64,000 nt of DNA from Candidatus Zhuqueibacterota bacterium (GTDB taxonomy: Bacteria; Zhuqueibacterota; Zhuqueibacteria; Oleimicrobiales; Geothermoviventaceae), in NCBI GenBank assembly GCA_034506315.1, contig JAPDPT010000005.1:36653-100652 (forward strand), written 5' to 3'. Of this stretch, positions 2,947-21,789 are shown in pieces. The number at the start of each line of letters is the position of its first letter. Position 1 is the stretch's first letter. The notes under the pieces were generated by a model that did not search any database, was not told the origin of the DNA, and was given only the letters and a program-made list of their open reading frames with translations. A program made the translations under genes and the position numbers.

Positions 2947-2968
2947 GGAACAGGACTGAGGCTCGGAG

Positions 2969-4300
2969 CTACTTGCGCCGGAAGGTGAGAACAAGGGGCA
3001 CTCCCTGAAAGCCAAATCGCTCGCGCAGCCGATTCTCGAGGTATTGCCGGTACGACGCCTTAATGCCCTTGGGAATGTTGCAGAAGAAGGCAAAGACCGG
3101 AGGGCCAGTGGCCACCTGAGCTGCGTATTTGATCTTGACGTACTTGGTCCCGTACGCGGGTGGGGGGTAAGCTGCCAGCGCTTCCTGCAGAAAGCGGTTC
3201 ACCTCGTGGGTGTCGATGCGTTTGCGGAGTTCCTGGGACACGGCAAGGGCAGCATCCAGCACATCGGTCACCCGCCAGTTCCGGAGAGCGGAGGTAAACA
3301 CGATTGGCACGTAACTGTAGATTCGGAGCTCCTCCTGTAGCGCCTTCCGGTACCTCTCGGCCAGCTCCGTGTCTTTCTGGAGAAGATCCCATTTGTTGAC
3401 GGCCAGGACGGCACCGCGTTTGGCCTCCAAGATCTCCTCCAGGATCCGCTTGTCCTGGGCAGCCAGGCCCTCGTCGGCGTCGATCATGAGGACGACCACC
3501 TCGCTGCGCCGGATCGCCCGGTGGGTCCGGACAGTACTGTAGAACTCCACCGCCTCGCGAATGCGGGAACGCCGGCGCAGCCCAGCGGTATCGATGAGCG
3601 TGATCCTCTGCCCGCGGTATTCGACGAGGGTATCGATGCTGTCGCGGGTGGTCCCGGGAATCTCCGTGACAATCAGCTTGGGCTGACCGAGCACGGCGTT
3701 GATGAAGCTCGATTTGCCCACATTGGGACGTCCCACCACGGCAATCCGGACGGACTCGTCCGCCGCCCCAGCCGAAGCGCGCGGCTGCGGCGGAGGGAAA
3801 AGGCTGACCAGACGATCGAGAAGATCCCCAATCCTGCGCCCGAGGGTGGCCGAGATGGGTACCGGGTCTCCCAGACCAAGCTGGTAGAACTCGTAGCCGT
3901 CCAGCTCCCGCCGCGCGCTATCGGCCTTATTGGCCACCAGAATGACCGGCTTACCCCTACGGGAAAGATCGCGGGCGATCTGCTGATCGAGGGGGGTCAC
4001 ACCGACCTGAGCGTCGCACACAAAAAGGATCGCCGTGGCTTCTTCGAGGGCGTACTGGACCTGCTCGCGCACGGCCTGCTCGATCAGGTCCTCGGTCTCG
4101 GGAACGTATCCCCCGGTGTCGATCAGAACGAAGCGCCGTCCTCCCCACTCGGCCTCCCCGTAGAGGCGATCACGGGTCACACCGGGCTGGTCGTCCACGA
4201 TAGCCAGCTGCTGGCGGAGAATGCGGTTGAACAGAGTGGACTTGCCGACGTTCGGCCGCCCAACGATGGCTACCACAGGTTTGTCCAGTTCCTGATTCAT
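2969..4300 (-). CDS. der: Ribosome-associated GTPase Der (EngA), tandem GTP-binding domains
   Basis: MNQELDKPVVAIVGRPNVGKSTLFNRI (first G1/P-loop), a second P-loop IAVVGRPNVGKSSFINAVLG, and DTGG/DTAG with NKAD/NKWD motifs. An ATG at 4298-4300 is preceded by GGAAGG. The ORF-track N-extension (TTG at 4369) was rejected. Confidence 0.9.
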   Translation of the reverse strand: MNQELDKPVVAIVGRPNVGKSTLFNRILRQQLAIVDDQPGVTRDRLYGEAEWGGRRFVLIDTGGYVPETEDLIEQAVREQVQYALEEATAILFVCDAQVGVTPLDQQIARDLSRRGKPVILVANKADSARRELDGYEFYQLGLGDPVPISATLGRRIGDLLDRLVSLFPPPQPRASAGAADESVRIAVVGRPNVGKSSFINAVLGQPKLIVTEIPGTTRDSIDTLVEYRGQRITLIDTAGLRRRSRIREAVEFYSTVRTHRAIRRSEVVVLMIDADEGLAAQDKRILEEILEAKRGAVLAVNKWDLLQKDTELAERYRKALQEELRIYSYVPIVFTSALRNWRVTDVLDAALAVSQELRKRIDTHEVNRFLQEALAAYPPPAYGTKYVKIKYAAQVATGPPVFAFFCNIPKGIKASYRQYLENRLRERFGFQGVPLVLTFRRK

Positions 4301-4381: not shown

Positions 4382-5728
4382 TCAGGGCCGAACGGAACGC
4401 TTCACCCACCTGGCCCTCTGCGACCCGACTCTGGTCCCTCTCCCACTCAGCACCCGCAGCACCTCGCGCAAAGACTGTCCCACCGGAATTACCTCTGACC
4501 CGATCGCTTTTTCCAGACGTGGTACGGTCCAGTCGTCCAGAAAGAGACCGTCGGGATTCAGCGCGTTCCCGGGGATAAGGACGAGATCGGGGGTTCTGCG
4601 GAAGAGTTGGCCCTCCGCGGCCAGGTCCGCCCCAACCAAAAGTCCGGACACTGATACGCTATCCCCGAAGAAGCGGTTCCTCACCGCCCGAATCTCCACC
4701 TCGAGGCCTTCGATGGCGCTCAGCGCCGGGAGCACCCTCTCTCGCAGGATCGGGGCCATGAGTTCCCCGGTCAGGATGCCGAGGGTCCGGGCTCTTGGAA
4801 GACGCTTCGGGAACTGCGGTGCCTCCATGGCAAGGACGTCCAGAAAGCTGCGGAGCATCCCCACGCCGTTTTCGACCTGGGGGAAGTCGTCGTAGCGCTC
4901 ACTGGGCGGTATGGGTAGGCCCGCAAGCAGGTACAATTCGTCGGCCAGGTAGATCCAGTGCCTGCCCAGGGTTCGCCGCAGCTCCCGGGCGATGGGCTCC
5001 AATGCCTCCACCACCTGCGCGGCCAGGCTCGAGTCCACGGGCCGCAGTTCCGGCAACCCCTGCCGGTAGCGGGTCAAACCTACGGGAACCACAGCTACCG
5101 AGGCAAGACCGGGGGCCATCTGGCGGAGATCTTCCAGGGTGCGCAGCAGCACCTCGCCGTCGTTGTAGTCTGGGACCAGGACGATCTGCGCGTGGATCTC
5201 GATTCCGCCCTCCACCAGCTCCTGGAGCTTTGCGAGGAGACCATCGTCCCTTCGAATCCCCAGGAGCTTGGTGCGAACGAAGGGATCAGTCGCGTGCACG
5301 CTCACGTACAGCGGAGAAAGCCGCTGCTCGATGATCCGTTGCAGATCGCGCCGGCCCACGTTCGTCAAGGTCACGTAGTTGCCGTGAAGGAAGCTGAGCC
5401 GATAATCCTCGTCCTTGAAGTACAGGCTTGGGCGCAAACCCGGGGGGTTCTGGTCGACGAAGCAGAAGATGCAGTGGTTGCCGCACGAGCGGTATTTTAT
5501 CTCTTCAAAGGCAATTCCCCACGGCTCACCGAAGCGGCGCCTACCGGAAAGCTCCAGCACCTCCCGCCCGCGCAGCACGCGCAAACGAACCTCTTCCTCC
5601 GACCCGTAGAATTGGAAGTCGATTTCGTCCCGGACGGGGGAGCCATTCACCTGCAGGATACGGTCGCCCTCGACCAGGCCCAGCCGGCGCGCGGTTCCCC
5701 TTCGCGCTACGTTACGTACCACCAGCAT
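4382..5728 (-). CDS. DUF512-family protein with an N-terminal PDZ domain (radical-SAM-like Cys cluster CGNHCIFCF)
   Basis: The N-terminus has a PDZ-like GLVEGDRILQVNGSPV. CGNHCIFCFVD and the overall 448-aa layout match the DUF512/TIGR03279-type family that often neighbours der. The ATG at 5726-5728 has a GGAGGG RBS 6 nt upstream. Confidence 0.65.
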   Translation of the reverse strand: MLVVRNVARRGTARRLGLVEGDRILQVNGSPVRDEIDFQFYGSEEEVRLRVLRGREVLELSGRRRFGEPWGIAFEEIKYRSCGNHCIFCFVDQNPPGLRPSLYFKDEDYRLSFLHGNYVTLTNVGRRDLQRIIEQRLSPLYVSVHATDPFVRTKLLGIRRDDGLLAKLQELVEGGIEIHAQIVLVPDYNDGEVLLRTLEDLRQMAPGLASVAVVPVGLTRYRQGLPELRPVDSSLAAQVVEALEPIARELRRTLGRHWIYLADELYLLAGLPIPPSERYDDFPQVENGVGMLRSFLDVLAMEAPQFPKRLPRARTLGILTGELMAPILRERVLPALSAIEGLEVEIRAVRNRFFGDSVSVSGLLVGADLAAEGQLFRRTPDLVLIPGNALNPDGLFLDDWTVPRLEKAIGSEVIPVGQSLREVLRVLSGRGTRVGSQRARWVKRSVRP

Positions 5729-6989
5729 CGCTTCCCTCCACCTGCCTTGCCCGGAGGTAGTCCAGGGCGAGTTCCTTGAGGACCGCCGCCACCGGCACAG
5801 CCACGAATAGCCCCACGACGCCCATCAATCGAGAGAACACTATAACGGCCAGCATCACCCACACGGGGTGAAGCCCAACTCTGTTGCCCACGATCCGTGG
5901 GCTGAGAACGGTACTCTCAACGATCTGGACGCCCTCAATCACCAGGATCGTTTTGAGCACGGTGGACCAGGGGTACGGGTCGAAGAGACCGATGAGTACC
6001 GCGACGATCAGGGTCACCGTGATCCCAACGTACGGGACAAGGTTCAGCACCCCCGCTAAGATCCCAAGCGCCAGGCTGTAACGGATCCCCGCGACGAAAA
6101 GACCAAGCGCCGTCAAGGAACCGACGAGCAAACACACCAGCAGTTGCCCCCGGACAAACCCGCTCACGACCCGATCGATGCGCCGATAAATGGCCACCGC
6201 CGCCGGCCGGTGGCGAGCCGGGACGAGGAGCTCTTTGGTCCCCTGACGAACCTTCTCGAAATCCCGCAGCAGGTAAAACGTCACGAAGGGCACCAGGACC
6301 AGGGTAAGCAACTGCCCGAGCAAGTTGGAAAGCCCCGTGCCGGCGCTCACGAGGCCGTTGAAGAGAACGCGCAACAGTCCCTGGGATCGCTGGGGCAGAG
6401 AACCGATCAGCTCCTGGACCAGCCGGGACGAGTCCAGGCCGAAACGGCTCAGGTACGGACCGACCTGATTGGTGTACCATTCCTGGAGGGCAGGGGCCTG
6501 ACTGACCATCTGCTCCACCAGCGAGCCTACCTCAGCGAGAAGCTTGGGGATCAGCAGAGCCACAACGGCCACGATGGCTCCCAGAGCCAGGGCGTCGAGG
6601 AGGAGGATCGTCAGGGTTCGCGGAAGTCCCCTTCGGGCCAGGATCCCCACCAGGGGGTCGAGAAGATAGGCCAATCCCAACGACAGAACGAAGGGAAACA
6701 GGACTGTCTTCAGAACCACGACAAGCTGGACGCAGAACACGAGCGAAATCGCCCACAGGGCCAGACGGACGCCCTGGACTCTCCGGTAGGGGTACAGGAG
6801 GACCCACGCCGCCAGCGCAAGCAGGGCTGGCGAAATCGACTCACGCAGGCGGTAGAGGGCAGCCCCCACTGCGATCAGCACAAGGCCCACGACCAGAGCA
6901 AGGAACTCGTGCCGGGCTGACCGAGCCTGCGACCTCGTCAACGCCTTCTCGCCCCCGATCGGAAACTCTGGTTGGTTCAGAGCTGCCAT
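5712..6989 (-). CDS. AI-2E family transporter (PerM/UPF0118)
   Basis: Polytopic membrane protein; the stretch ...LSNLLGQLLTLVLVPFVTFYLLRDFEKV... is typical of PF01594. The internal ATG at 6987-6989 (MAALNQPEF...) was chosen over the non-ATG ORF-track start at 7133. Confidence 0.75.
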   Translation of the reverse strand: MAALNQPEFPIGGEKALTRSQARSARHEFLALVVGLVLIAVGAALYRLRESISPALLALAAWVLLYPYRRVQGVRLALWAISLVFCVQLVVVLKTVLFPFVLSLGLAYLLDPLVGILARRGLPRTLTILLLDALALGAIVAVVALLIPKLLAEVGSLVEQMVSQAPALQEWYTNQVGPYLSRFGLDSSRLVQELIGSLPQRSQGLLRVLFNGLVSAGTGLSNLLGQLLTLVLVPFVTFYLLRDFEKVRQGTKELLVPARHRPAAVAIYRRIDRVVSGFVRGQLLVCLLVGSLTALGLFVAGIRYSLALGILAGVLNLVPYVGITVTLIVAVLIGLFDPYPWSTVLKTILVIEGVQIVESTVLSPRIVGNRVGLHPVWVMLAVIVFSRLMGVVGLFVAVPVAAVLKELALDYLRARQVEGSDAGGT

Positions 6990-7014
6990 CGATTCCCACC
7001 ATTTGTCCCCATGG

Positions 7015-7674
7015 TTAATCCCTTCGTTTCCTCGAGGCCTTCCGGCGCGACTCCAGAGGACGCGCCAGCACGCGTACGGGGGAACCGTCCCCCTCCTCGA
7101 GCCGAAGAGGAATAGCCAGGACGAAGTAGACACCGTCCTCCAGGGCGCTGAGTTCGAGCATTTCCAGCACCGGGATCCCCTGCTCGAGGAGAATACGATG
7201 GGCGGGAAGGGAAAGATCGTCCACAGGGTCCACCGAATAACTGTCGATCCCGAAGAGCTGGATCCCCGCTGCTACAACCCAGCCCGCAGCTTCCGGCTCC
7301 AAGTAAGCGCGCGTCGGGGCAGGGGCCCCGGAACCGGCTGTGCGGACAAACAGGCGCTCCACGCCCTCCGGCACTCTGGCTTCCAGATCCACGCGCCGAA
7401 CGGCTCCCGAGCTCGGTACGGACACTACGTACGTCTCCCCGATAAAACGATCCGCCGGGATCTTGTCGATCGTCACCCCGCCTGGGATCACGTGAGCAGG
7501 AGCGTCCACATGGGTGGCCACGTGGCCGGTGAGCGTGTAGCGCCTCAGCCTGTACCCATCCCCTCTCTGGAAATCGGCTACCGCTTCGACCACGGGCGGC
7601 GACTCTCCTGGGAAAACGGGCGCGCACCGACCGATGGGGAACGAAAGCTCCATCCAGGATTCAGACTCCTGCAA
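7015..7674 (-). CDS. Cyclase-family protein (kynurenine formamidase / arylformamidase-like, PF04199)
   Basis: The motif HVATHVDAPAHV matches the HxGTHxDxPxH metal-binding motif of the putative-cyclase/KynB family. TTG start at 7674 with a GGGAGG RBS; an alternative ATG lies at 7653. Confidence 0.7.
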   Translation of the reverse strand: MQESESWMELSFPIGRCAPVFPGESPPVVEAVADFQRGDGYRLRRYTLTGHVATHVDAPAHVIPGGVTIDKIPADRFIGETYVVSVPSSGAVRRVDLEARVPEGVERLFVRTAGSGAPAPTRAYLEPEAAGWVVAAGIQLFGIDSYSVDPVDDLSLPAHRILLEQGIPVLEMLELSALEDGVYFVLAIPLRLEEGDGSPVRVLARPLESRRKASRKRRD

Positions 7675-7721
7675 TGCCGTGACCTCCCAGAACGGTCTTG
7701 CTGCGTTGTACTCCCCGCCCT

Positions 7722-9152
7722 TCAGACCGAGGGATTGACGACTACGAGCTTCAGCTCGGTCATCTCCTCAATGGCCCAGCGAAGACCCTCTCGTCCGAAG
7801 CCGGATTCCTTGACGCCGCCGTAAGGCATATGGTCCACACGGTACGTAGGCACATCGTTCCAGATCACTCCTCCCACTTCCAGTCGATCCGCGGCGAGCA
7901 GGAGGTTCCGGATGTCGGCGGTGAAGACCCCTGCCTGGAGTCCGAAACGGGAATCGTTCACCAGGGCGATGGCCTCCTGGAAGCGGTTGTAGGGCTCGAT
8001 CACGGCTACTGGCCCGAAGACCTCCTCCGCGTACACTTCGCAGCTGTGGTCCACACCTTCCAGGAGAGTGGGAAGGTAGAAAGGCGGCTCGGCCCGTCCT
8101 CCAAGAAGCACCGTGGCCCCCTTCTTCACAGCATTGCCGACCCAGGTTGCCACGCGCTGGAGATTGGCGCTATCGATCATCGGCCCCACCCGAGTAGCTG
8201 GATCGAGTGGGTCGCCCACGGGAAGTGCCTGGCTGGCGCGGATCAATCGGGCTTTGAAGTCGTCGTAGATAGGCCGGTGCACGAAGATTCTCTGAACGGA
8301 AATGCAGACCTGCCCGGCCGATCCGAACGCGCCGATGGCGATCCGCTGGGCCGCGTACTCCAGATCCGGTGCGTCGGAGTGGACGATGACACCGGCGTTT
8401 CCTCCGAGCTCGAGTACCACCTTCTTGCGCCCAGCGATCGACTTCAGGTACCAGCCGACGGCTGCACTTCCGGTGAAGCTGACCAGGCGCAGGCGATCGT
8501 CGCGCACCAGCCGTTCCGCCACTTCGACGCGGGCGGGCAATACGCTCAGGGCGCCTTTGGGCAGGCCAGCCTCCTCGAACAGCTGGGCCAAGCGCAGGGC
8601 CGTGCACGGAGTGTGCGGCGAAGGCTTAATGATCACCGGATCCCCCGCCGCGATCGCCGGAGCCAGCTTGTGAAGTACAAGGTTGAGAGGGAAATTGAAG
8701 GGCGTGATTCCGAGCACGGGCCCAAGAGGAACCCGGCGCGTAAAAGCCCACCGCCGCTCCGAGCCGCGCAGCAAGTCGAGGGGGATTACCTCCCCGCCGA
8801 TGCGCTTTGCCTCCTCGGCAGCCGTCGTCAGCGTGTGGATTGCCCTCTCTACCTCCATGCCCGTGAAGAAACGCGGAATGCCCGCCTCACGGCTCATTAG
8901 GTCTACGAAGGCCTCCTTCTCCTGGGACAGGGAAGAGGCCACGCGAAGCAGGATCTCCGCTCTCCGGTAGGCCGGCAGATCGCGGAGGGACTCGGCGGCC
9001 TCCATTGCCTCACGGACGGCAAGCTCCGCCTCCGACTCACCCGCCTGACAGACGAGTCCGAGCAGGCTGCCATCGAAGGGATTACGATCTTCGAGCTTCT
9101 CGGCTGTTTCGCGCCATTCACCCGCGAGGTAAAGGGGAAAAACTTCCGCCAT
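7722..9152 (-). CDS. NAD(P)+-dependent aldehyde dehydrogenase
   Basis: The ALDH glutamate motif VVLELGGNAG and catalytic Cys context GSAGQVCISVQRIFVH are present. Start ATG at 9150-9152 (MAEVFPLYLAGEW). Confidence 0.85.
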   Translation of the reverse strand: MAEVFPLYLAGEWRETAEKLEDRNPFDGSLLGLVCQAGESEAELAVREAMEAAESLRDLPAYRRAEILLRVASSLSQEKEAFVDLMSREAGIPRFFTGMEVERAIHTLTTAAEEAKRIGGEVIPLDLLRGSERRWAFTRRVPLGPVLGITPFNFPLNLVLHKLAPAIAAGDPVIIKPSPHTPCTALRLAQLFEEAGLPKGALSVLPARVEVAERLVRDDRLRLVSFTGSAAVGWYLKSIAGRKKVVLELGGNAGVIVHSDAPDLEYAAQRIAIGAFGSAGQVCISVQRIFVHRPIYDDFKARLIRASQALPVGDPLDPATRVGPMIDSANLQRVATWVGNAVKKGATVLLGGRAEPPFYLPTLLEGVDHSCEVYAEEVFGPVAVIEPYNRFQEAIALVNDSRFGLQAGVFTADIRNLLLAADRLEVGGVIWNDVPTYRVDHMPYGGVKESGFGREGLRWAIEEMTELKLVVVNPSV

Positions 9153-9259
9153 GGCCTTACCCTCTCGATCCTCTCCCGAATCGGCCCCCTGGCGTCTCCC
9201 TTCCCGGGCCCAACAACGGCGGCGAGCGTGGGCGGTCCCGTAACGGCTCGGAGGGGACT

Positions 9260-10612
9260 TCAAAGCCCGTATTCCTCGGGCAAGAAAAGATGGCGGTAGG
9301 CCTCAAAGCCCAGCCGGACCGCCTTCTCCTCCGTGTCGCAGGCCGCCAGCGCCTCCTCGATGCGATCCAGCCAGTCCCACTCTCGATCCCCGAGGGGTAG
9401 ACTTCCCTGTTCTTTCGCCTCCCGCAGAATCCGGCAAGCTTCCAGTCCGGCCGCACGGGTCCGGGCGAAGTCGTCGTTTTCGGCTGCCATGGCTCGCGCA
9501 ATCCGAAAGGCACCCTGGGGCGAGATGATCCACGCCTGCGGAGAGCCGACGAGGTCACTCTCCACCAGCCACTGGATGAGGGAGGCCTCCTGTCCGTCCT
9601 GAAGGGCCCGATTGAAGAGCCGGCAATCGTAGACCAGCATCTCCAGAAAGGCCACAGGCGCCGGCCCCGAAAGAAGCTGCACATTCTGCACGGACTCGTT
9701 GCTCCACAGATCACACACCGCGGCGGCCACGTTGCCGACGTGGCTCAGGTGTGCGCAGGCGGCCGTCTTCCCCTCCATTGAGATGGGGATACCCAGAAGG
9801 GCCTTGAGGATGGGCCCCTCGTAGGCGCAATCCTTGCTCGGCCCCACGGCTCCCTCGAGATAGGCGACCAGGCTCCGGGCCGCTCCCATCGCCCGATCGA
9901 CGGCCGCCAGCGTCTGCGGCAAGTATCCTCGATCCGCAAGGACCATGGCGGTGTTGGCGAAGCCGCAGGCCGTGTCGCCGGCCGGCACACTGCCGGATGC
10001 GCGTGCCACGTCCACAATAAAGCGCCACAGGTGGTGCATATCGCGACACCCGAGGACCCCAAGGGAGAACAGGATCCCCTCGACGTTTCCCTCCATCAGG
10101 GCGACGTCATGCACCTCCTTGCCACCGGTGCTTTCGATGGAGAGCATGGCCGCACCCGCTCGTGCATTCCGATCGAAGGCCCGGCGCATCAGATCCCAGT
10201 TGGTACCAGTCCTCATCCGGGGAGGCCTATCCATATCGCGGAGGTCAGACACGGTCACGCGCAATGCCGCCGGGATGCCCGTGCGCGCTGAGAAGTCCGC
10301 GATGCGTTGCGCGGTCTGCCTTGTGATCTGCACGCCGATGTCCACCTCCTGGGTCAGTGCTGGCAGGTGCTCGAACTCGAGGACCAGAGCCGGAGGCTTG
10401 AGGGCGGCCGCGCGGTCCAGCAGACTCTGCACGATCTCGTCGAATTGCCTCTCTACCTGCTGGCGAGACTCGCGCGAGATCAACATCGGGGGCAGCGTGT
10501 AGTTGATCTCGGGGATGACCAGCCCCTGGCCCATGCTGACCCCTCCAGCTTGCACCGGCCTCCGGGCTTTCCCCATCCGCATCTCCGTCCAATCCCGGTA
10601 CGCAAGTTCCAT
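9260..10612 (-). CDS. MtaB-like protein (methanol:corrinoid methyltransferase B-subunit family), orphan
   Basis: 451 aa. The N-terminal block EMRMGKARRPVQAGGVSMGQGLVIPEINYTLPP resembles, from memory, the MtaB N-terminal signature (...EMTFG...PV.AG....G.G..IPEINY). Several conserved Cys/His/Glu are candidate Zn ligands. ATG at 10610-10612 with a strong AGGAGAGG RBS. No MtaC/MtaA partner genes are nearby. Confidence 0.4.
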   Translation of the reverse strand: MELAYRDWTEMRMGKARRPVQAGGVSMGQGLVIPEINYTLPPMLISRESRQQVERQFDEIVQSLLDRAAALKPPALVLEFEHLPALTQEVDIGVQITRQTAQRIADFSARTGIPAALRVTVSDLRDMDRPPRMRTGTNWDLMRRAFDRNARAGAAMLSIESTGGKEVHDVALMEGNVEGILFSLGVLGCRDMHHLWRFIVDVARASGSVPAGDTACGFANTAMVLADRGYLPQTLAAVDRAMGAARSLVAYLEGAVGPSKDCAYEGPILKALLGIPISMEGKTAACAHLSHVGNVAAAVCDLWSNESVQNVQLLSGPAPVAFLEMLVYDCRLFNRALQDGQEASLIQWLVESDLVGSPQAWIISPQGAFRIARAMAAENDDFARTRAAGLEACRILREAKEQGSLPLGDREWDWLDRIEEALAACDTEEKAVRLGFEAYRHLFLPEEYGL

Positions 10613-10694
10613 ATCCCTCTCCTTCCGTGCGGATCTGACGGCACCCCGTCCCGAACTTGGCGACAATTCCCAGGCGGCAAGCAGGCCCTTTCGT

Positions 10695-12644
10695 TCACCG
10701 GAGCAGCAGAATCTTGCGATAACGAACGTCCGATCCCGCCTGCAGGCGGCAGACGTAGGTACCCGTGGCGAGCTCCCGCGCGTCGAGACGAACCGAGTGG
10801 CGCCCGGCCGAGAATCGTCCCTCACAGACTCTGGCCACGACCCTGCCGCGACTGTCGAACACTTCGATCCGAACCAGTTCGTCCCTTGGGAGCTCGAATT
10901 CAAGAAGAGTCCAATCGTTGAACGGATTCGGCCAGTTGGGACCAAGTTCCACCCTTGCCGGGACGTCGGCGGCCAGCTCCTCGACACCGGTGAACAGGGG
11001 CTTCTCCATCAGGATCCAGCCCTCCGGGTCGATCTGCACCTCGTCTCCCGCGTTCACCCGGAGGGTGGCCGAGCCGGGGCTCATGTCCACGCGAATGATC
11101 CTCCTCCCGGCCTGCACTTCCACCGGCATGGGGAAAGGCAGGTCGTTCGGCACCTGCCAGCGGAGACGTATCGAAACAGCGGATCGCTCGACAACGAGCT
11201 GGGGAAGACGAGGCTGACGAAGATAGACCTCGAAAAACCAATCCAGATCTTCGCCAGCGATCGACTCGGCCAATTGAACGATGTCCTCGGTGGTGGCGAA
11301 GCGGCACTGCGCTCCGTCGGTCACCTTCTCCAGACTAGAGTCTGGGTAGACGACCCGCCGCAAGAAGGTGCGGAACTCTCCGTCCCCAAGCAAGAAGCGT
11401 AACGTGTGCAGGACCCAGGCCCCCTTGTAGTAGATGTCCAGGCTGTACATTTCGCGGGTAGATTTCGATTCGCGAGGGGCCAAAGGGACATGGTTCTGGA
11501 TTGAGCCCCGAAAGCCGGCCAGGTAATTCTTGTAGGCCTGGCGCCCACCGAGGGACTCCGCGTAGAGAGCCTCCAGGTACGTGGCAAAACTCTCGTGAAT
11601 CCAGAAATCCTTCCAGTCGGCAGCCGTCACGCAGTTGCCGTACCATTCATGGGCCAGTTCGTGGAAATGTAGCTCGTCGAATCCGTACGAATTCGTCCGG
11701 AAGCGGTTCCCGTAGGCGATGATCGTCTGGTGCTCCATGCCCAGGTAAGGCGCTTCGGCAACGCCGTACTTGTCGCGGCGGAAGGGATAGGGGCCGGCCA
11801 CTGACTCCAGGAAGCGCAGATCCTGATGGATTCGGCTCAGGAACGTCTGGCCCTGCGCCACGTGCTCCGGTAACACCCAGAAAAACGTGGGGATGGTATC
11901 CCCCGCCAGGCTGACGTAGGGAGCCTCAAGCTGGACGTACGGCGCAGCGTAGAAGCTTATCCCGTAGTTATTGATCGGGGTCGAAACGAACCAGTGGTAG
12001 GTTCGTGTGTGGTCCGCATTCTCGGTGGTGCCCAGGAAACGGCCGTTGGCCACACAGACCAGATCGGCGGGCACAGTGAAATGCAGCGCTACCGAATCGG
12101 GCTCATCCGAGGGATGGTCCTTGCACGGCCACCAGACGTCAGCCCCCTCGAGCTGGCAAGCCACTCCGATCCAAGGGGCTCCGGACGGCGTACGGGACCA
12201 TACAAGCCCGCCGTCCCATGGAGGATTCGGGGCAACCCTCGGGCGGCCCCCGTAGAACACCCTTGTCCTGACCGAGGCCCCCGACCTACCTTGCCCCATC
12301 AGAGAAACGCTGAGGTAGGGCCCTCGCTGCCGGAAACCGGATCGCTCGAATCCCCCGGCCTCGCTGGCAACCCACACGGAATCCACCTTCAGCAGCGGAT
12401 CCAGGTTCAGCAGGAGGGAGTCGCATGGGGTGATCAGGACAGCCTCCACCGTGACGGAGCCACGCAGTGTCCGCTGCACCGGATCGATCCGGAGGTCCAG
12501 GTCGTAGAAACGTACGTCGTAGGTAGCCTGCTCGGGGAGAAGCGGCCCACCGCTGTCGTACGGCTGCAGGACCAGGCCCGCAGCCATCAGACATGGCGCT
12601 CCCACCCCCACCACCAGGCTGCGCCACACCGCGCGCCGACTCAT
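10695..12644 (-). CDS. Secreted M1-family zinc aminopeptidase with T9SS C-terminal sorting domain
   Basis: HELAHEWYGNCVTAADWKDFWIHESFATY is the gluzincin HExxH-x18-E motif of M1 peptidases. Signal peptide MSRRAVWRSLVVGVGAPCLMAAG (ATG at 12642-12644). The C-terminus ...GTYVCRLQAGSDVRYRKILLLR is a T9SS CTD. Confidence 0.8.
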   Translation of the reverse strand: MSRRAVWRSLVVGVGAPCLMAAGLVLQPYDSGGPLLPEQATYDVRFYDLDLRIDPVQRTLRGSVTVEAVLITPCDSLLLNLDPLLKVDSVWVASEAGGFERSGFRQRGPYLSVSLMGQGRSGASVRTRVFYGGRPRVAPNPPWDGGLVWSRTPSGAPWIGVACQLEGADVWWPCKDHPSDEPDSVALHFTVPADLVCVANGRFLGTTENADHTRTYHWFVSTPINNYGISFYAAPYVQLEAPYVSLAGDTIPTFFWVLPEHVAQGQTFLSRIHQDLRFLESVAGPYPFRRDKYGVAEAPYLGMEHQTIIAYGNRFRTNSYGFDELHFHELAHEWYGNCVTAADWKDFWIHESFATYLEALYAESLGGRQAYKNYLAGFRGSIQNHVPLAPRESKSTREMYSLDIYYKGAWVLHTLRFLLGDGEFRTFLRRVVYPDSSLEKVTDGAQCRFATTEDIVQLAESIAGEDLDWFFEVYLRQPRLPQLVVERSAVSIRLRWQVPNDLPFPMPVEVQAGRRIIRVDMSPGSATLRVNAGDEVQIDPEGWILMEKPLFTGVEELAADVPARVELGPNWPNPFNDWTLLEFELPRDELVRIEVFDSRGRVVARVCEGRFSAGRHSVRLDARELATGTYVCRLQAGSDVRYRKILLLR

Positions 12645-12935
12645 GTCTTGCCTTCCTTTTTTCCTGCCCCGGCGATGGCCCAAACCCGACGCAATCTACA
12701 CCATTCTTCCCTCTTTACCAAGCCGTTGTGGTTCGTGAGACGTCCGCCTGGGCACCCGGAACGTTCGGGCAAATCTGCGATCGGGAATCGGCGCGTCCTA
12801 TTTGCATTTCCGCCGCGTGGGCGCTACCTTTGGATCCGTTAGCCCGATGGGCTCCCTGCCCCTTGGGGTAGGGCCCAGAGCTCGGGGGCTCAAAGCGCAC
12901 GGCTCTCCGCTATCATTGGACGCAAGGACGGACGA

Positions 12936-13979
12936 ATGGACCTACCTGAGACGATTGCAAGCGTAGAACAGCTGGAGGAGTTCCTGTCTCGGCCCTCCGA
13001 GCGCCTGATCGCGAGCGTCCGCAGACTGGACGACGGCGATCTGCTGCTCTTGGGGGCTGGCGGGAAAATGGGCCCTACCCTGGCGCGGATGGCGCTGCGG
13101 GCCTTCCGCGAATCCGGAGATTCGAGGCGCGTGTACGCAGCCTCCCGTTTTTCCGCGCCGGAGGTCGAAGCCAGACTACGCGAGTGGGGCATCTGTACTC
13201 TGCGGGGGGATCTCTTGGACCGCGAGTTCGTGCGCCGGCTCCCGGATGCACGCTACGTCGTCTTCATGGCCGGGCGCAAGTTTGGAACAGCCGGCGATCG
13301 TTCCCTGACGTGGGCCCTGAACGCTCTGCTGCCCGGCCTGATCGGCGAAAGGTTCCGCCAGGCCAGAATCATCTGCTTCTCCACCGGAAATGTCTATCCG
13401 CTCGTCCCTTTGACATCGGGCGGTGCCACTGAGGACACACCCACAGCCCCGGTCGGGGAATACGCACAATCCGCCCTCGCGCGCGAGCGGATCTTTGAAT
13501 ACTTCTCCCGGCGCCACGGGGTGCCGGTCTCGATCATTCGCCTTAACTACGCGGTCGAAATGCGCTACGGCGTCGTTCTGGACATCGCCACGAGGGTCTG
13601 GCAACGCCAGCCTGTGTCCCTGGCCATGCCAGCGGTGAACGTGATCTGGCAGGGCGACGCCTGCGAGTACACCCTACGCTCCTTCGAGATCTGCGCGTCC
13701 CCGCCCGCGGTCCTCAATGTGACCGGGCCCGAACTGGTGTCCGTTCGCTGGCTCGCCCGCGAGCTGCACCGACGGCTGCACGAGGAAGGCGAACCGGAGT
13801 TCATCGGTTCGGAGCCCGAGAGCGCCCTTCTCAGCAACGCCGCGCGCTGCTTCGAGCTGTTCGGCTACCCAAATGTGCCGCTCGGAAAAATCCTACAGTG
13901 GACGTGCGAGTGGGTGCGCGCCGGGCTTCCCACACACGACAAGCCTACCCACTTCGACGTTCGGGACGGAGAGTTTTAG
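12936..13979 (+). CDS. NAD(P)-binding Rossmann-fold protein, epimerase/dehydratase-like (atypical extended SDR)
   Basis: LLLGAGGKMGPTLARMAL is a GxGGxxG dinucleotide-binding motif and the ~347-aa size fits. The ATG at 12936 is preceded by AAGGACGGA. One of only two convincingly plus-strand genes in the window. Confidence 0.5.
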   Translation: MDLPETIASVEQLEEFLSRPSERLIASVRRLDDGDLLLLGAGGKMGPTLARMALRAFRESGDSRRVYAASRFSAPEVEARLREWGICTLRGDLLDREFVRRLPDARYVVFMAGRKFGTAGDRSLTWALNALLPGLIGERFRQARIICFSTGNVYPLVPLTSGGATEDTPTAPVGEYAQSALARERIFEYFSRRHGVPVSIIRLNYAVEMRYGVVLDIATRVWQRQPVSLAMPAVNVIWQGDACEYTLRSFEICASPPAVLNVTGPELVSVRWLARELHRRLHEEGEPEFIGSEPESALLSNAARCFELFGYPNVPLGKILQWTCEWVRAGLPTHDKPTHFDVRDGEF

Positions 13980-14003
13980 GCTTTCGGCAATCGGAGGGTC
14001 ACC

Positions 14004-15080
14004 ATGGCGATGCCCCTGCCCCCAGAAGACATCCTCCAGGCTCTGCGAAAAGGGACGGTCATCCCAGCCCATCCGCTGGCCCTGAACGCGAAAAGACAAT
14101 GGGACCCGCGTCGCCAGCGCGCCCTCACCCGATACTACCTCGAGGCGGGGGCCGGTGGCATCGCCATTGGCGTGCACACCACCCAGTTCGCGATCCGTGA
14201 TCCGAAGATCGGCCTGTACCAGCCTCTGCTGGAGTTCACGGCGCAGATCATCGATGATTTTGAGCGGCGCACAGGGAAGAGAATCATCCGCATCGCCGGG
14301 ATCGCCGGGAAGACGGAGCAGGCCGTTCGGGAAGGCTCCCTGGCGGCCCGTCTCGGCTACCACGCAGGGCTCCTGAGTCTGGCTGCCTTGCCGCAGGCGT
14401 CCATCGATGAGCTGATTGACCACTGCCGCCGCGTGGCCGAGGTCATCCCGCTGATGGGGTTTTACCTCCAGGAAGCGGTGGGAGGCCGTCCCCTGCCTTA
14501 CCCATTTTGGAGGCGGCTCTGCGAAATCGACAATCTGGTGGCCATCAAAGTGGCGGCCTTCAACCGCTACCACACGCTGGATGTACTTCGCGCCGTGGCC
14601 GACTCCGGTCGCGCCGCTGAGATCGCCCTCTACACGGGCAACGATGACCACATCGTGTTGGATCTTCTCACCCCCTTCCGTTTCGAGACGCAATCGGGCA
14701 GCGTGGAGGTGCGCTTCGTGGGGGGACTTCTGGGACAGTGGGCCGTCTGGACGAAAAGAGCGGTGGAGCTCCTGGAGGAAATTCACGCCGTCGTGCAGGC
14801 TGGGGAAGCAATCCCGGTCCGCCTGCTTGTCCTCGCTCATCAGCTTACCGATGCCAACGCCGCGATTTTCGACGCCGCCAATGGCTTTCGCGGGGTGATC
14901 GCGGGCGTGCACGAGGTTCTCCGTCGCCAGGGCCTCCTGGAAGGAAGGTGGCTCCTCGATCCGGACGAAGACCTTGGGCCCGGTCAAATGGCCGAAATCG
15001 ACCGCGTTTACCAGGCCTATCCTCACCTGAACGACGACGACTTTGTCCGGGAGCACCTCGACCGCTGGCTCGCTGATTAG
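14004..15080 (+). CDS. DHDPS-like TIM-barrel protein (DUF993-type)
   Basis: 358 aa with no signal peptide. Composition and motifs suggest the dihydrodipicolinate-synthase-like aldolase clan. ATG at 14004 after GGAGGG. Forms a close pair with the upstream epimerase-like gene. Confidence 0.4.
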   Translation: MAMPLPPEDILQALRKGTVIPAHPLALNAKRQWDPRRQRALTRYYLEAGAGGIAIGVHTTQFAIRDPKIGLYQPLLEFTAQIIDDFERRTGKRIIRIAGIAGKTEQAVREGSLAARLGYHAGLLSLAALPQASIDELIDHCRRVAEVIPLMGFYLQEAVGGRPLPYPFWRRLCEIDNLVAIKVAAFNRYHTLDVLRAVADSGRAAEIALYTGNDDHIVLDLLTPFRFETQSGSVEVRFVGGLLGQWAVWTKRAVELLEEIHAVVQAGEAIPVRLLVLAHQLTDANAAIFDAANGFRGVIAGVHEVLRRQGLLEGRWLLDPDEDLGPGQMAEIDRVYQAYPHLNDDDFVREHLDRWLAD

Positions 15081-16413: not shown

Positions 16414-19200
16414 TCAACCCGATCGCTCCAGCCGCAGACGGCGAAGCGGGATCAGCCGTACGGGACCGAGGAGACCCGAGTCCACAGGCTCCCAGTCGCT
16501 CGCGTCGAAGGGGCGGTACCGGAGGTTCACGAAGTTGATGTCGTAAAAGATCTTCCAGGGAATTCCCCGCCGATCGACATCGCGGATGCGGTTGGCCGCG
16601 AGGTTGGTAACCTCCAGCTCCAGCGAATTCCAGCCCCGCTTGTACCCGTCCGTAAGGACCACTACGAAGGGCAGCGCCCACGCCACGCCGATGTCTATTC
16701 CGTTCAACCGCACACGCGCGCTCTCCCGCACGTCTCCGAGGTCGAGAAGCCAAGCGTCGGCAGCGGCACCCGGCCAGCGGAAGGTCGTAGCGTAAAGGGC
16801 CGTCCCGGCAAACCGCTCCGCTTCGGGATCGCCCAGGCGAGTCCACGACCCCAATCTCTCTGTCTCAAATCCAGCAGGGAGAGTCGGCCCCCCTTCGACG
16901 AAGGTCACCCGCCAGGGCCCGGGTACTTCGAACGTGTCCGGTTGCGCCTTCCAGTAGTCCCAGTACGGGCCCTCCGGCCGGGCTGTCTGAAACGTTCGCA
17001 GGATGGCCGATTGTCCCGGCCGAAGCTGGACGTAGACCTCCGGGCAGGGTCCCGCACCTCGAACGGCAGCTTTGCCCCATTTCCCCGTGAGCGGATCAAG
17101 GAAATAGGCGTGCCGGAAAGGCCTCGCGAGCTTTACCCATCGGTCCACCTCCCTGTCGCCAAGATTGGCCAGGAAATAGAAATGCCCGTCCGGAACTCTA
17201 CGACGGATCACGCCCACTCCGAGCTGGATCAGCTCCTCAGCCTGGACTCCGGCTGCCCCGAGAAGTGTGGCCCCCTGTTCCCCAACAACGAGCTTACCCT
17301 TGCCGAGGCGAGCAACCGCAAGGTCCCCTTCTCTGCGAAACGCCAATCGGCCCTGAGCCTGGCGCAGAGCAAGCCGCCTCCGCTCCAGGTTGGCCAGCCC
17401 CGGTACGTCCTGAGGCAGATGGCGATGGAAGAGCACGCAGGCACCTTGGCGGGCCAGGGCCTCCAGTCTGCGCCACGTCTCCAGGGGTAACAGGCGGCAC
17501 TCCGGGACAACAAGAGCTTCGTAGCTCGTCCCGCCCAGCAGGATCCTTCCGGACTCGACCGAGGCGGCGCCCAACAGGCCATCGGAAACGAAGTCGAAGG
17601 TGTATCCCAGGCTCAGGAGCTCCTTGGCCAGAGCCCCGTAGGGCAGGCTATCGACCCAGGCCGTGAAGTGGACCGTGAGCTGCCGCTGGTACCCTGTGGT
17701 GTCGTGCCAGATGTCGTGCACGGGCCAGTAGAAGAGGACGTCATTGTCTGGAAGGCCCGCTTGCAGGACTGCCTGACACCTCTGGACATACGCGTTCAGG
17801 GCCGGCAAATCTCGCCAGATGGGGTTCGTGGGCTGGAAATGGACCGAGGCGTAAAAAAGCCAGCCAGGCCATGGTGCCTCGGCGGGGGAGTAAGCCGTTC
17901 CGTGGTACTGAACGTGGTTGATCCCCGCCAGGAACAGCTGGTCGATCTCGGGCTTGATCATCGAAAGAGCTGTCCGGAAGTGCTCGCGGAGCCAGGTGCA
18001 GGTCTCGGCCGCTACCAGGCGCCGACCGCTCACGTGGGCGGCGGAGGAGGCGAACCGGAGGATGAGAGGGTTGGGCACCTCCTCTCGCACATCTCCGGGG
18101 AGGCGGCGCAGACCCGGAATCGGGAAGGGTGTAGATCCGAAGGTCTCGGTCTCCGGAATGTCGGCGGCAGCGTAAAGGTCCAGCAGGTTGGCCGGGGCGC
18201 CGTGAGCCTCGTTTCGTGTCCGACTCCCGTGGGCGCGCGCCCACTCCACCCATGTCCGAAGGTAATCGAGGTGAAGCTCGGAGAGGGTAGCTCGGTAATC
18301 CGCCTTGACGCGCGCCACCGTATCCGGCGCCCCCAAGCCGGCGAAGGCCGGGAGGTGATCCTCCAAGCGATAGCCCCGCCGGACCTCGAATTCGCGCAGG
18401 AGATCGTCCGTCCAGTTGGCGCCGTAATATTCGTAGGAGTCGTGGTAGTGGCATCGGGGCCAAGGTGAGCCGTGGACAGCGAAGGCGGTGTCGAAGCGCT
18501 GAAGGTAGTAGCGCATTGCCCGCGGCGAGAAGGGATCGAGCACCCAACCCTCGTTTCCTGGCGCTGCGCGCTTGACGCGCTGGCCCGTTCCCTTCTGCAG
18601 AAGGACCACGATCTGCCACGTGCCGGAGGGCGGGCACCACTTCAGCCGTGCACTCTGGGCAAGCTGGGCAAGCAGGCTCTGCCGCGAGCCGTCCGGCCCG
18701 TAGGCCTCAGCGGCGCGCACCGAGGTCGGATCTACTTCGAGCTCCGCGGGATGGTCAAGTGCGGCAGTCATCCGCACAAGCTGAAAACCCTTGGCCGCGA
18801 ACTCCGGCCGAACATGGGAACCACCGAAAGGCCAGCCTGTGCCCGTGCTCATGTCCAGCCACATGCCCAGGCTCTCCGCAACGGCGACCGCGTAGGAGAA
18901 CAGGGCCATCCACCGCGGGCCCAGGAAGTCCACGAACTGTGCCTCGTACCCGCGCACGCCGTAGATGGGGATCACCAGAACTCCGCCGATCCCCGCCTGG
19001 TGTAGTTGCAGGAGGTTGTGGCGCAAATGGGTAGAATCGACCGCGCTGCCCATCCACCACCAGTACGTGCCCGGCCTCGACTCTCGGGCCATCTCGGGCC
19101 AGATCTGCGCCGACGAGGGGGAAAAGGGTCCCACCGTGGCGATCGCGAAAATTGCCCCCATGAGCAATCCCAGGGCACCACACTTGCCCCTGCCGAGCAT
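16414..19200 (-). CDS. Large secreted glycoside-hydrolase-like protein, family uncertain (GH2-sugar-binding / GH106-like architecture)
   Basis: About 930 aa with signal peptide MLGRGKCGALGLLMGAIFAIATVGPFSPSSAQ. The C-terminal end ...NLRYRPFDASDWEPVDSGLLGPVRLIPL is a beta-sandwich-like terminal strand common in GH2/GH106-type enzymes. No T9SS CTD. Family assignment is a guess. Confidence 0.45.
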   Translation of the reverse strand: MLGRGKCGALGLLMGAIFAIATVGPFSPSSAQIWPEMARESRPGTYWWWMGSAVDSTHLRHNLLQLHQAGIGGVLVIPIYGVRGYEAQFVDFLGPRWMALFSYAVAVAESLGMWLDMSTGTGWPFGGSHVRPEFAAKGFQLVRMTAALDHPAELEVDPTSVRAAEAYGPDGSRQSLLAQLAQSARLKWCPPSGTWQIVVLLQKGTGQRVKRAAPGNEGWVLDPFSPRAMRYYLQRFDTAFAVHGSPWPRCHYHDSYEYYGANWTDDLLREFEVRRGYRLEDHLPAFAGLGAPDTVARVKADYRATLSELHLDYLRTWVEWARAHGSRTRNEAHGAPANLLDLYAAADIPETETFGSTPFPIPGLRRLPGDVREEVPNPLILRFASSAAHVSGRRLVAAETCTWLREHFRTALSMIKPEIDQLFLAGINHVQYHGTAYSPAEAPWPGWLFYASVHFQPTNPIWRDLPALNAYVQRCQAVLQAGLPDNDVLFYWPVHDIWHDTTGYQRQLTVHFTAWVDSLPYGALAKELLSLGYTFDFVSDGLLGAASVESGRILLGGTSYEALVVPECRLLPLETWRRLEALARQGACVLFHRHLPQDVPGLANLERRRLALRQAQGRLAFRREGDLAVARLGKGKLVVGEQGATLLGAAGVQAEELIQLGVGVIRRRVPDGHFYFLANLGDREVDRWVKLARPFRHAYFLDPLTGKWGKAAVRGAGPCPEVYVQLRPGQSAILRTFQTARPEGPYWDYWKAQPDTFEVPGPWRVTFVEGGPTLPAGFETERLGSWTRLGDPEAERFAGTALYATTFRWPGAAADAWLLDLGDVRESARVRLNGIDIGVAWALPFVVVLTDGYKRGWNSLELEVTNLAANRIRDVDRRGIPWKIFYDINFVNLRYRPFDASDWEPVDSGLLGPVRLIPLRRLRLERSG

Positions 19201-19220
19201 TTCCGACCCCGAGTTCCACC

Positions 19221-20267
19221 CTACCCAGAGAAGCCCAGCCCCCACGTGGCATCTACCAGCGCGTGGACGATGGCCGCTGTTGTCACCTTGCCCGTGCGGA
19301 GATACGCCAGCCCGTAGAAGACCCCCGCGATAGTCGCCAGCACAATGTAAACCCAGGGAACCGAAAGACTACCCAGCGGGCCAAGGGACCAGTGGAGCAG
19401 GGGCGGGACACGGTTGTTCACGTGAGCCCAGCCGAAGATCACGCTGGTAACCACAAGCGAAACGGGTTTCCACCGCGACTGCTCCCCCAGCCTCTGAGCC
19501 AGCAGATTCTGGATGAGACCCCGGAAAAGCACCTCCTCCGGAACCCCGGTGAACAGGAAAATAGCCACGACGGTTAGCACGACCCGAGCAGCGGAGGGGG
19601 CCTGCGTCGACGGCCGGATGAATCCCGTGGGTAACCCGAGCGCCAGGGCGAAGGGGACAAAGGCGAGAAAGTAAAGTACCGCCCACTTCAGATCCTCTCT
19701 CCGGAAATCGAGGCGAAACCCGACGCCGCTGACCGCCCGGACCGACAGAAACGTGTACAGGGCAAACGGCATGGCCAGCATCGACCCAAGACCGATCACC
19801 CCCTTCGCTGGAGGAAGAGGGGGTCCTGAAATCCAGTCCAACTCCACCGGAAACCAGATGGCCAGGATGGCGAGAAGATCTCCGACGTTCGGGCGTTCAC
19901 CCAGCCGATTGGCAAGCTTTGCCAGCGCCACGGGGAGCAGCCCGTAGAAAAGAACTGACAGGGGAAGGGCCGAACGGGCGAAAACTGCACCGTACACCAG
20001 GGCCACCGCCCACACGGCCAAGGGGAAGAACCAGACGCGTGCGCCGCCCCTCCGCCCAAGATTCCGCAAGGCCTGGACAAAACGGAAATCCGTGAACGCC
20101 AGAGTAACCAGAAGGGCCAGGCCAAAAACCGCCGCAGCTACAGCCGTCTCTGCTGCCCTTGCTCCCGCCGATGCCGCACGCCAGGAGAATCCGCCCACAG
20201 CGAGGGTCAGCAGAACCAATGCCACCCACGCATTCCGACCGGGGAGAAAATCCGATTCACGGGCCAT
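19221..20267 (-). CDS. CPBP-family intramembrane metalloprotease (CAAX protease / Abi family)
   Basis: GVPEEVLFRGLIQ (EExxxR) and VIFGWAHVNN (FxxxH) are the two signature motifs of PF02517. Multi-pass membrane protein. ATG at 20265-20267 (MARESDF...) with a GGAGGGAGG RBS. Confidence 0.8.
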   Translation of the reverse strand: MARESDFLPGRNAWVALVLLTLAVGGFSWRAASAGARAAETAVAAAVFGLALLVTLAFTDFRFVQALRNLGRRGGARVWFFPLAVWAVALVYGAVFARSALPLSVLFYGLLPVALAKLANRLGERPNVGDLLAILAIWFPVELDWISGPPLPPAKGVIGLGSMLAMPFALYTFLSVRAVSGVGFRLDFRREDLKWAVLYFLAFVPFALALGLPTGFIRPSTQAPSAARVVLTVVAIFLFTGVPEEVLFRGLIQNLLAQRLGEQSRWKPVSLVVTSVIFGWAHVNNRVPPLLHWSLGPLGSLSVPWVYIVLATIAGVFYGLAYLRTGKVTTAAIVHALVDATWGLGFSG

Positions 20268-21528: not shown

Positions 21529-21789
21529 GGGATTCCCTGTAGGCAACCAGGTGTCCGGTGGTCCCTCGTAGCGGCCGAAGTTGCTCTATGGCCGAGAGAA
21601 AAGCAAGGAAAATCCTGTGCGCTGCCCCGCTTGCGACCCTCGGGCCATCCCACACCGCGAACACGGACCCCTTGCCTTCGACCTCCGGGCGGGGTGGAAC
21701 GACGAAAGGTCACTTGCTCGCAACTCGAAGCGAGACTCTGTGGGAGCCGGAATCCCCCTTTGATTCCGCTTGGCCCTCGGGGAAGACCC

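Follow-up and report, generated by a model that had tools for sequence, protein, structure and literature searches.

The window analysed here is a 64,000-nt stretch of the 104.6-kb contig JAPDPT010000005.1 (positions 36,653 to 100,652, forward strand) from a candidate division KSB1 (Zhuqueibacterota) bacterium. At positions 9260-10612, on the minus strand, it carries a gene of the MtaB family of methanol:corrinoid methyltransferases. At the scale of the window this gene is an orphan, with neither a corrinoid protein (MtaC) nor any other recognised partner gene in its surroundings, and the comparisons made here give no sign of decay. The balance of the evidence leans slightly toward its product being a working methyl-donor:cob(I)amide methyltransferase of the bacterial MtaB branch that uses a corrinoid supplied from elsewhere.

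The gene and its product

The MtaB gene reads from an ATG at 10612 to a stop codon at 9260-9262. An earlier note on this DNA had described a clean open reading frame (ORF) with a strong ribosome binding site (RBS) at 9260-10612, and both are there: 450 aa and a stop, behind the stretch AAGGAGAGGG. The peptide quoted in that note, EMRMGKARRPVQAGGVSMGQGLVIPEINYTLPP, corresponds to residues 10-42. The features of the gene are as follows:

9260..10612, minus strand: MtaB-family coding sequence, 450 aa plus stop (451 codons), from the ORF, its translation, Pfam, the 2i2x_A alignment and the AlphaFold2 (AF2) model
10615..10624, minus strand: Shine-Dalgarno-like sequence AAGGAGAGGG, its GGAG core 6 nt 5' of the MtaB ATG, by direct sequence reading
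10133..10135, minus strand: codon of Glu160, which aligns with zinc ligand Glu164 of Methanosarcina barkeri MtaB (2i2x_A alignment)
9965..9967, minus strand: codon of Cys216, which aligns with zinc ligand Cys220 (2i2x_A alignment)
9827..9829, minus strand: codon of Cys262, which aligns with zinc ligand Cys269 (2i2x_A alignment)

A 575-aa reading from a GTG at 10987 was considered and rejected. The homologues align from residue 1-3 of the 450-aa form, and the GTG form enters the upstream peptidase gene, which together place the start at ATG 10612. NCBI has a 100% identical entry, [quoted passage not shown] (P0001; P-numbers denote homologous proteins from the searches, and L-numbers the related loci that were retrieved). 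With a GC content by codon position of 0.69/0.47/0.79, and with codon usage and third-position GC (GC3) indistinguishable from those of the adjoining genes, the gene is real and native to its host. Recent horizontal transfer from a methanogen or acetogen was rejected in turn: codon usage and GC3 are native, the nearest relatives are bacteria of KSB1 and of the Fibrobacterota-Chlorobiota-Bacteroidota (FCB) group, and the position is syntenic with that in another KSB1 metagenome-assembled genome (MAG).

The MtaB-family identity proposed in the earlier note holds up in sequence and in predicted fold. The only Pfam match of the protein is PF12176, at full length (497.8 bits, where the cutoff is 25, and E 3.9e-149; residues 2-448 align to profile positions 6-459 of 460), and its sole sequence match in the PDB is chain A of 2I2X, which is MtaB in the MtaBC complex of M. 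barkeri (E 5e-83, 36% identity), a structure reportedly published in 2006. The Glu164/Cys220/Cys269 zinc triad of 2I2X aligns with E160/C216/C262, so that the Glu/Cys/Cys ligands whose conservation the earlier note wished to see checked are all in place; the triad is invariant in 44 close homologues and occurs in nearly all family representatives. The window and M. barkeri proteins also have the motifs SxESxGGKE, GDTxC, GPxKDCxYE and WSNES in common. An AlphaFold2 model based on 44 homologues (predicted local distance difference test, pLDDT, 94.1; predicted template modelling score, pTM, 0.93) was compared with known structures by Foldseek, and 2i2x_A was retrieved with E 3.4e-39, a template modelling score (TM) of 0.94/0.92 and a root-mean-square deviation of 1.7 Å. 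The predicted fold is that of the MtaB TIM barrel. A better match to an unrelated TIM-barrel family, which the earlier note had named as a result that would speak against its proposal, was not seen: MtaB is the only Pfam or NCBIfam match, 2I2X the only PDB sequence match, and the next structure reaches a TM of just 0.33. One family representative, P0264 (1238 aa), has its MtaB domain at residues 796-1237, fused to about 800 N-terminal residues.

More than 7000 MtaB relatives were scored in a collection clustered at 90%. The whole family is compact: clustering at 50% leaves 465 representatives with E<=1e-3, of which 106 reach E<=1e-30. The strongest matches in genomes and metagenomes (47-66% identity) come from hosts that include KSB1, Calditrichota, Bacteroidota, Ignavibacteriota and Acidobacteriota MAGs, as well as those of Verrucomicrobiota, Planctomycetota, Chloroflexota, NC10 and Armatimonadota. 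Judged by these matches, MtaB homologues in glycan-degrading or otherwise heterotrophic bacteria of the FCB group, the Planctomycetota-Verrucomicrobiota-Chlamydiota (PVC) group and the Acidobacteriota are not rare. Trees were built by neighbour-joining (NJ) on BLOSUM distances and carry no support values, which makes them indicative only. In the NJ tree of named representatives, an archaeal clade (Methanosarcina, Methanomethylophilus, Methanobrevibacter/Methanosphaera and Hodarchaeota; 31-37% identity to the window protein) separates from a bacterial super-clade that holds the window MtaB together with the cluster represented by the acetogen Eubacterium maltosivorans (44%). Thus the closest relative with a plausible methanol role appears to be the acetogen MtaB and not the crystallised archaeal one.

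Missing partners

The families expected to accompany an MtaB were derived from related loci and confirmed by Pfam on representatives: the corrinoid protein (PF02310 with PF02607), URO-D (PF01208), the activase RACo (PF14574 with PF17651 and Fer2) and DUF1638. Searches for partners and other features covered the whole 64 kb, including the flanks of the gene. Among the called genes, Pfam finds no B12-binding protein, no URO-D/MtaA, no RACo and no DUF1638; tblastn with over 100 partner proteins gives no match in the window, and neither do the partner profile hidden Markov models (HMMs) run against all of its six-frame ORFs. The statement of the earlier note that no corrinoid protein (MtaC) or MtaA gene flanks the MtaB gene is confirmed by these three empty searches, and the MtaB gene really is an orphan at the scale of the window. 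In a search with a KSB1 MtaC as query, the best 120 matches include none attributable to the host MAG. No pectin methylesterase, tetrahydrofolate (THF)-C1 or Wood-Ljungdahl genes are seen among the window genes.

How often MtaB genes stand alone was counted on 88 loci with at least 3 kb on both sides, out of 168 non-redundant related loci examined. A corrinoid protein gene lies within 300 nt of mtaB in 41 of the 88, typically directly upstream and on the same strand, and where a locus has MtaC at all it is nearly always this close (41/44). URO-D is found within 3 kb in 52/88 and RACo in 20/88. Corrinoid protein, URO-D and activase are all absent from the fetched locus in 25 cases (28%), 18 others (20%) have URO-D but lack the corrinoid protein, and in the tree orphan loci are intermingled with MtaC-linked ones; thus orphan MtaB genes are a sizeable minority in the bacterial clade. 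The earlier note had singled out an orphan MtaB in a glycan degrader. Its orphan status stands, but MtaB homologues in such hosts are not rare: more than 7000 relatives were scored, and around half of the related loci have a complete set of mtaC and URO-D genes, with or without RACo.

Origin of the orphan state and signs of selection

The genes around MtaB to which its history can be tied are listed here:

7722..9152, minus strand: aldehyde dehydrogenase (ALDH), 476 aa from ATG 9152, Pfam Aldedh E 2.2e-145; 104 nt downstream of MtaB
10695..12683, minus strand: M1 peptidase with a C-terminal sorting domain of the type IX secretion system (T9SS), Pfam Peptidase_M1 and Por_Secre_tail; 82 nt upstream of MtaB
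7015..7674, minus strand: cyclase/arylformamidase-like gene, Pfam PF04199, TIGR03035 below cutoff; 38% identity to the L001/L088 copy
4382..5728, minus strand: PDZ/radical-SAM-like/DUF512 gene (Pfam); synteny anchor with L001 (66%) and with L005 gene 20 (45%)
2972..4294, minus strand: EngA/Der GTPase, Pfam MMR_HSR1 twice and KH_dom-like; 50% identity to L005 gene 21
1147-3093: FlgD_ig protein, 37% identity to L005 c52

Downstream of MtaB the order in the window is ALDH, cyclase, AI-2E transporter, DUF512 gene, Der and FlgD_ig protein. In the KSB1 MAG L005 (JACKDE010000001.1, HK-STAS-KSB1-1), a cluster made of RACo, a MetH-activation-like gene, URO-D, MtaC, MtaB and four more URO-D genes is followed by DUF512, Der and an FlgD_ig-type c52, which tblastn places at 45%, 50% and 37% identity to their window counterparts and which match these in order and orientation. 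Clades that are sister to the window MtaB (L003, L006, L010) likewise have MtaC, URO-D and mostly RACo. Because the full L005 cluster precedes the same DUF512-Der-FlgD_ig block, and because the sister clades have partners, the ancestor probably had a full mta cluster at this position, from which the window lineage lost the partners; the reverse, a gain of partner genes in L005, is not the parsimonious reading. The earlier note had spoken of a "non-methylotrophic context", which 64 kb cannot establish, and with a full corrinoid methyltransferase cluster at the syntenic position in L005 the orphan state looks like a secondary loss of neighbours. The partners could be encoded elsewhere in the genome. 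Within the L005 cluster, the gene between RACo and URO-D (L005 7515-8165) encodes a 217-aa protein like the B12-reactivation domain of MetH (PF02965), so that this cluster would seem to combine two distinct ways of reactivating the corrinoid.

The orphan gene is well conserved. At 114 columns that are at least 95% conserved in 42 MtaC-adjacent homologues, the window MtaB is identical in 109, and its five differences are conservative (F/Y, Y/F, G/A, M/L and I/L). Across all orphans these columns are conserved at 0.93-1.0, much as in the MtaC-linked loci. Within the subclade paired with ALDH, Nei-Gojobori ratios of nonsynonymous to synonymous substitution (dN/dS) are 0.05-0.16, values that are indicative only as dS is saturated, and the branches of the window subclade are not conspicuously long in the NJ trees. 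These comparisons show no sign of decay or of a remodelled active site, they point to purifying selection on the orphan MtaB, and they give no hint of new chemistry.

The MtaB-ALDH pair and its setting

Pfam on the window genes agrees with the neighbours that the earlier note had named, an ALDH and a secreted peptidase in a glycan-degrading T9SS setting. Elsewhere in the window are glycoside hydrolases (GH106, GH3, GH116, GH5 and two GH16), carbohydrate-binding modules (CBMs), a SusC-like receptor and PorV. Upstream of MtaB, the M1 peptidase takes the slot that mtaC takes in about half of the related loci. No terminator-like site is found between the M1 peptidase and MtaB, nor in the 104-nt spacer between MtaB and ALDH; over 6900-13000 such sites occur at shuffled expectation, so that the scan is silent on operon structure, and no promoter-like sites are found in the same interval. 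A tRNA scan of the 64 kb finds none. The NCBIfam matches of the ALDH all fall below cutoff, the best being lactaldehyde dehydrogenase, followed by sulfoacetaldehyde and GAPN-type dehydrogenases.

The pairing with ALDH recurs in relatives. In L001/L088, 21 nt separate an MtaB 64% identical to that of the window from a downstream ALDH (67% identity to the window ALDH), and this spacer carries a GGAGGGG RBS; on the hydrothermal-vent contig L089 the MtaB is 66% identical, and the ALDH (67%) follows after a 20-nt spacer with the same GGAGGGG RBS. The start of the same ALDH lies 3' of the MtaB in L092. Since L089 and L092 hardly differ and both are 80% identical to L088, MtaB followed by ALDH is counted in three lineages: the window, L001/L088 and L089/L092. 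The orphan, ALDH-paired arrangement is uncommon but not unique. The pairing may reflect synteny rather than functional coupling, because the cyclase, AI-2E and DUF512 genes are also kept near MtaB in L001.

Proposed function and alternatives

If the window MtaB works as a methyl-donor:cob(I)amide methyltransferase, homology would have its Glu/Cys/Cys-bound zinc polarise the C-O bond in methanol, or in another small O-methyl donor much like it, whereupon the methyl group would pass to a Co(I) corrinoid. At this position the KSB1 lineage most probably lost the genes for the cognate MtaC, for the second methyltransferase of URO-D type and for the reductive activator, and the MtaB gene now stands in a conserved pair with the ALDH. 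M. barkeri MtaB reportedly can use free cob(I)alamin in vitro, according to work of 1999; an orphan such as the window enzyme could therefore draw on free cobamide or on a corrinoid protein encoded elsewhere in the genome. Its likely role would be the salvage of methyl groups released or exposed during the degradation of methylated polysaccharides.

Several results weigh against this proposal. Besides the empty partner searches, an Rfam scan of the 64-kb window matches no family, the cobalamin riboswitch included. The sole NCBIfam match, NF040651 (MtaB_Meth), scores 404.8 bits, below the equivalog cutoff of 720, and on this evidence the protein is a member of the MtaB family and not an equivalog of the methanogen enzyme. 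In the ALDH-paired relatives L001/L088 and L089, no corrinoid protein, URO-D or RACo lies within ±10 kb of MtaB; since these relatives are partnerless too, the orphan state has persisted while the sequences diverged by about 35%, as might be expected if the mode of action had changed. Finally, no assay of any MtaB from the FCB, PVC and Acidobacteriota clade was found in the literature searched.

In an alternative that we hold to be unlikely, MtaB and ALDH form a repurposed two-step module for a non-methanol substrate, such as an O-methylated sugar, a methyl glycoside or a methoxy-aldehyde from glycan breakdown. In such a module MtaB would take off or pass on the methyl group by way of an unlinked carrier or of free cobamide, leaving the ALDH to oxidise the aldehyde unmasked in this way or one nearby. 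The pair is kept in three lineages with matched identities (67% for ALDH, 64-66% for MtaB), with spacers of 20-21 nt in L001/L088 and L089, and MtaC, URO-D and RACo are missing from all ALDH-paired loci. Relatives of 59-62% identity sit inside loci with GH38, sugar ABC transporter, URO-D and CobW genes that have no B12-binding protein within ±10 kb, and the window itself is rich in glycoside hydrolases, a GH106 rhamnosidase among them, and also encodes DHDPS-like aldolases and an ALDH that comes closest, below threshold, to lactaldehyde dehydrogenase. However, the sequence gives no indication of the O-demethylation or repurposing suggested in the earlier note: no residue change points toward a new substrate or a lost corrinoid interface, since 109 of the 114 near-invariant columns are kept and orphans conserve these columns like linked loci. 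The interspersion of orphan and MtaC-linked loci in the tree also argues against repurposing, the ALDH adjacency could be mere synteny given that the cyclase, AI-2E and DUF512 genes are kept as well, and such chemistry was not found described for the MtaB family in the literature searched. Less probable again is that the ALDH-paired orphans and the MtaBs of the GH38 loci make up a branch that departed from methanol methylotrophy and O-demethylates methylated sugars or methyl glycosides in carbohydrate catabolism, by means of a cobamide that is free or shared or of a carrier so far unrecognised, the ALDH then processing the product.

Canonical methanol methylotrophy, with a full MtaABC system whose mtaC and mtaA lie outside the window and with free methanol (for example from pectin de-esterification) as carbon or energy source, seems improbable to us. 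It overlaps with the methyltransferase proposal and differs from it only in having methanol as substrate and a dedicated partner. In known systems mtaA is commonly unlinked from mtaB, and the KSB1 relative L005 has the full system. The mtaB of Acidobacteriota in peat, where the gene is transcribed, has moreover been read as evidence of methanol use (PMC10805028). Yet in characterised and predicted systems mtaC almost always adjoins mtaB, being "always colocalized" in one study (PMC8065059) and within 300 nt in 41 of the 44 MtaC loci counted here, and the window shows no pectin methylesterase, THF-C1 or Wood-Ljungdahl genes. The least probable of the explanations weighed is that the gene is an evolutionary relic of a decayed mta cluster, with no or marginal function now that its partners are gone. 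The L005 synteny does indicate that MtaC, URO-D and RACo were lost here, and they are absent from the 64 kb, but a relic should hardly keep an intact ORF with a good RBS, all or nearly all catalytic and near-invariant residues (109/114), native codon usage and a dN/dS of 0.05-0.16, or persist as an orphan across lineages that are only 64-66% identical.

Comparison with known systems

The methyltransferase proposed here can be set beside four kinds of characterised or predicted systems. With M. barkeri MtaB (2I2X) it has in common the full-length Pfam family, the predicted fold and the zinc-binding Glu/Cys/Cys, but at 36% identity it belongs to the bacterial clade, it has no adjacent mtaC, and its host is a T9SS glycan degrader, whereas M. 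barkeri is a methanogen. The acetogen MtaB of E. maltosivorans (WP_096920796.1, "methanol--corrinoid methyltransferase", from the 50%-identity cluster) falls in the same super-clade at 44-45% identity over the full length, likewise with conserved zinc ligands, but in a different sub-clade. In acetogens mtaB stays together with mtaC, and the methyl-corrinoid enters the Wood-Ljungdahl pathway; the window shows neither mtaC nor Wood-Ljungdahl genes.

Closer still are the bacterial mtaC-mtaB/URO-D/RACo clusters of FCB, PVC, Acidobacteriota and KSB1 MAGs, whose MtaBs are 47-54% identical to the window protein and share its near-invariant residues; that of L005 occupies the same chromosomal position, upstream of DUF512-Der-c52. 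These clusters have the corrinoid protein, URO-D and often RACo next to mtaB, whereas the window has instead the M1 peptidase upstream and ALDH-cyclase-AI-2E downstream. In the Mtv and Odm O-demethylases of acetogens and Desulfitobacterium, a substrate-specific first methyltransferase (MT1) strips the methyl group from an ether oxygen and hands it to a corrinoid protein whose cobalt is in the reduced Co(I) state, a state maintained by an activase. This MT1 is presumably of a different protein family and not of PF12176, and we know of no MtaB-family member shown to cleave methyl ethers. The overall logic of the Mtv and Odm systems would match that of the window MtaB only if the O-demethylation idea of the earlier note were true of it.

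In metagenome surveys, mtaB is taken as a marker of methanol methylotrophy (PMC10805028, PMC12343361, PMC11264602). The presence or expression of MtaB in non-methanogens, KSB1 included, is already reported at annotation level (PMC12343361, PMC10805028): mtaB was annotated in such organisms, among them KSB1, in Solar Lake mats (PMC12343361), and Acidobacteriota mtaB was found transcribed in Stordalen Mire peat and interpreted as methanol use (PMC10805028). An mtaB is also noted in an Opitutus-like tundra bin (PMC4842900). The "always colocalized" corrinoid protein genes mentioned above are those of Brockarchaeota (PMC8065059). Two genomics papers on KSB1/Zhuqueibacterota make no mention of methanol or corrinoids, and on the function of the clade or its link to methylated sugars or pectin the literature searched has annotation-level mentions only.

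Other contexts of relatives and of the window

Loci of other relatives suggest, circumstantially, that the bacterial MtaB clade is linked to carbohydrate metabolism. MtaBs of 59-62% identity (P0004-P0007), including one from another KSB1 MAG, lie in loci L081-L085 and L090 (for example L081 1-21332, with MtaB at 10001-11332). About 15 genes are conserved there: GH38, DUF4185/DUF5005, a sugar ABC transporter, a flavin reductase, VOC/PF06983, CobW, three to four URO-D paralogues (one of them fused to two thioredoxin-like domains) and a giant GH38/beta-helix protein. No B12-binding protein is found within ±10 kb of MtaB in these loci, which may represent a glycan-linked methyl-transfer system with no recognisable corrinoid carrier. 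In Bacteroidota and Ignavibacteria (L013, L021, L024, L027, L041, L044 and others), URO-D-MtaC-MtaB is flanked by two large proteins, c5 and c6, of about 777 and 747 aa (for example L021 5909-8239 and L044 5050-7290), for which no Pfam or NCBIfam family is matched, and galactokinase or glycerate kinase genes lie near mtaC-mtaB. A context of the sulfur-relay type is found on two independent contigs, where P0011 and P0012 (56-57% identity; L086 6566-13395 and L091 4077-10672) belong to an Rrf2-Hexapep-NadA-NifU-ThiI-MtaB-PALP-ThiF operon whose frames overlap or abut, with copper ATPase and YHS genes nearby. The MtaB P0016 adjoins a Cu-type P-ATPase.

In the window itself, four genes or groups (12936-15080, plus strand; 16414-19245, 20611-21546 and 7722-9152, minus strand) lie within 12 kb of each other and comprise an NAD-dependent epimerase/dehydratase, two aldolase-like proteins of the dihydrodipicolinate synthase (DHDPS) family, a GH106 alpha-L-rhamnosidase and the lactaldehyde-dehydrogenase-like ALDH. 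This set would fit the non-phosphorylative catabolism of a deoxy-sugar (rhamnose or fucose). A PorV/SusC-like/GH16/CBM9 glycan-utilisation stretch contains three large minus-strand ORFs with no Pfam match, at 26481-29948 (1155 aa), 23603-25117 (504 aa) and 35394-36821 (475 aa), the last of which has the most atypical codon usage of the window (Kullback-Leibler divergence, KL, 0.22). At 54017-58882 (minus strand), one ORF of 1621 aa joins a full AcrB transporter of the resistance-nodulation-division (RND) type (residues 47-1072) to an ABC ATPase domain (1345-1489); this may be a fusion of an uncommon kind, the alternative being two separate genes run together through a frameshift or a missing stop codon. 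It is followed at 58845-63932 by another RND gene and by genes for a membrane-fusion protein and an outer-membrane factor.

Significance

The window and the 88 related loci indicate that mtaB, as a marker of methylotrophy, is not always backed by partner genes. The orphan MtaBs appear to be under purifying selection and occupy stable non-C1 contexts, namely the ALDH pair, the GH38 glycan loci and the ThiI-PALP-ThiF operon. They belong to a bacterial clade for which no characterised member was found, and which is experimentally tractable. If sugar O-demethylation proved true of the branch, it would be the anaerobic answer, built on corrinoid and zinc, to sugar demethylation by P450 enzymes. Should the orphans rely on cobamides that are free or unlinked, polysaccharide degraders may scavenge methanol or methyl groups more commonly than has been supposed; if they do something else, marker-gene surveys overcount methylotrophs.

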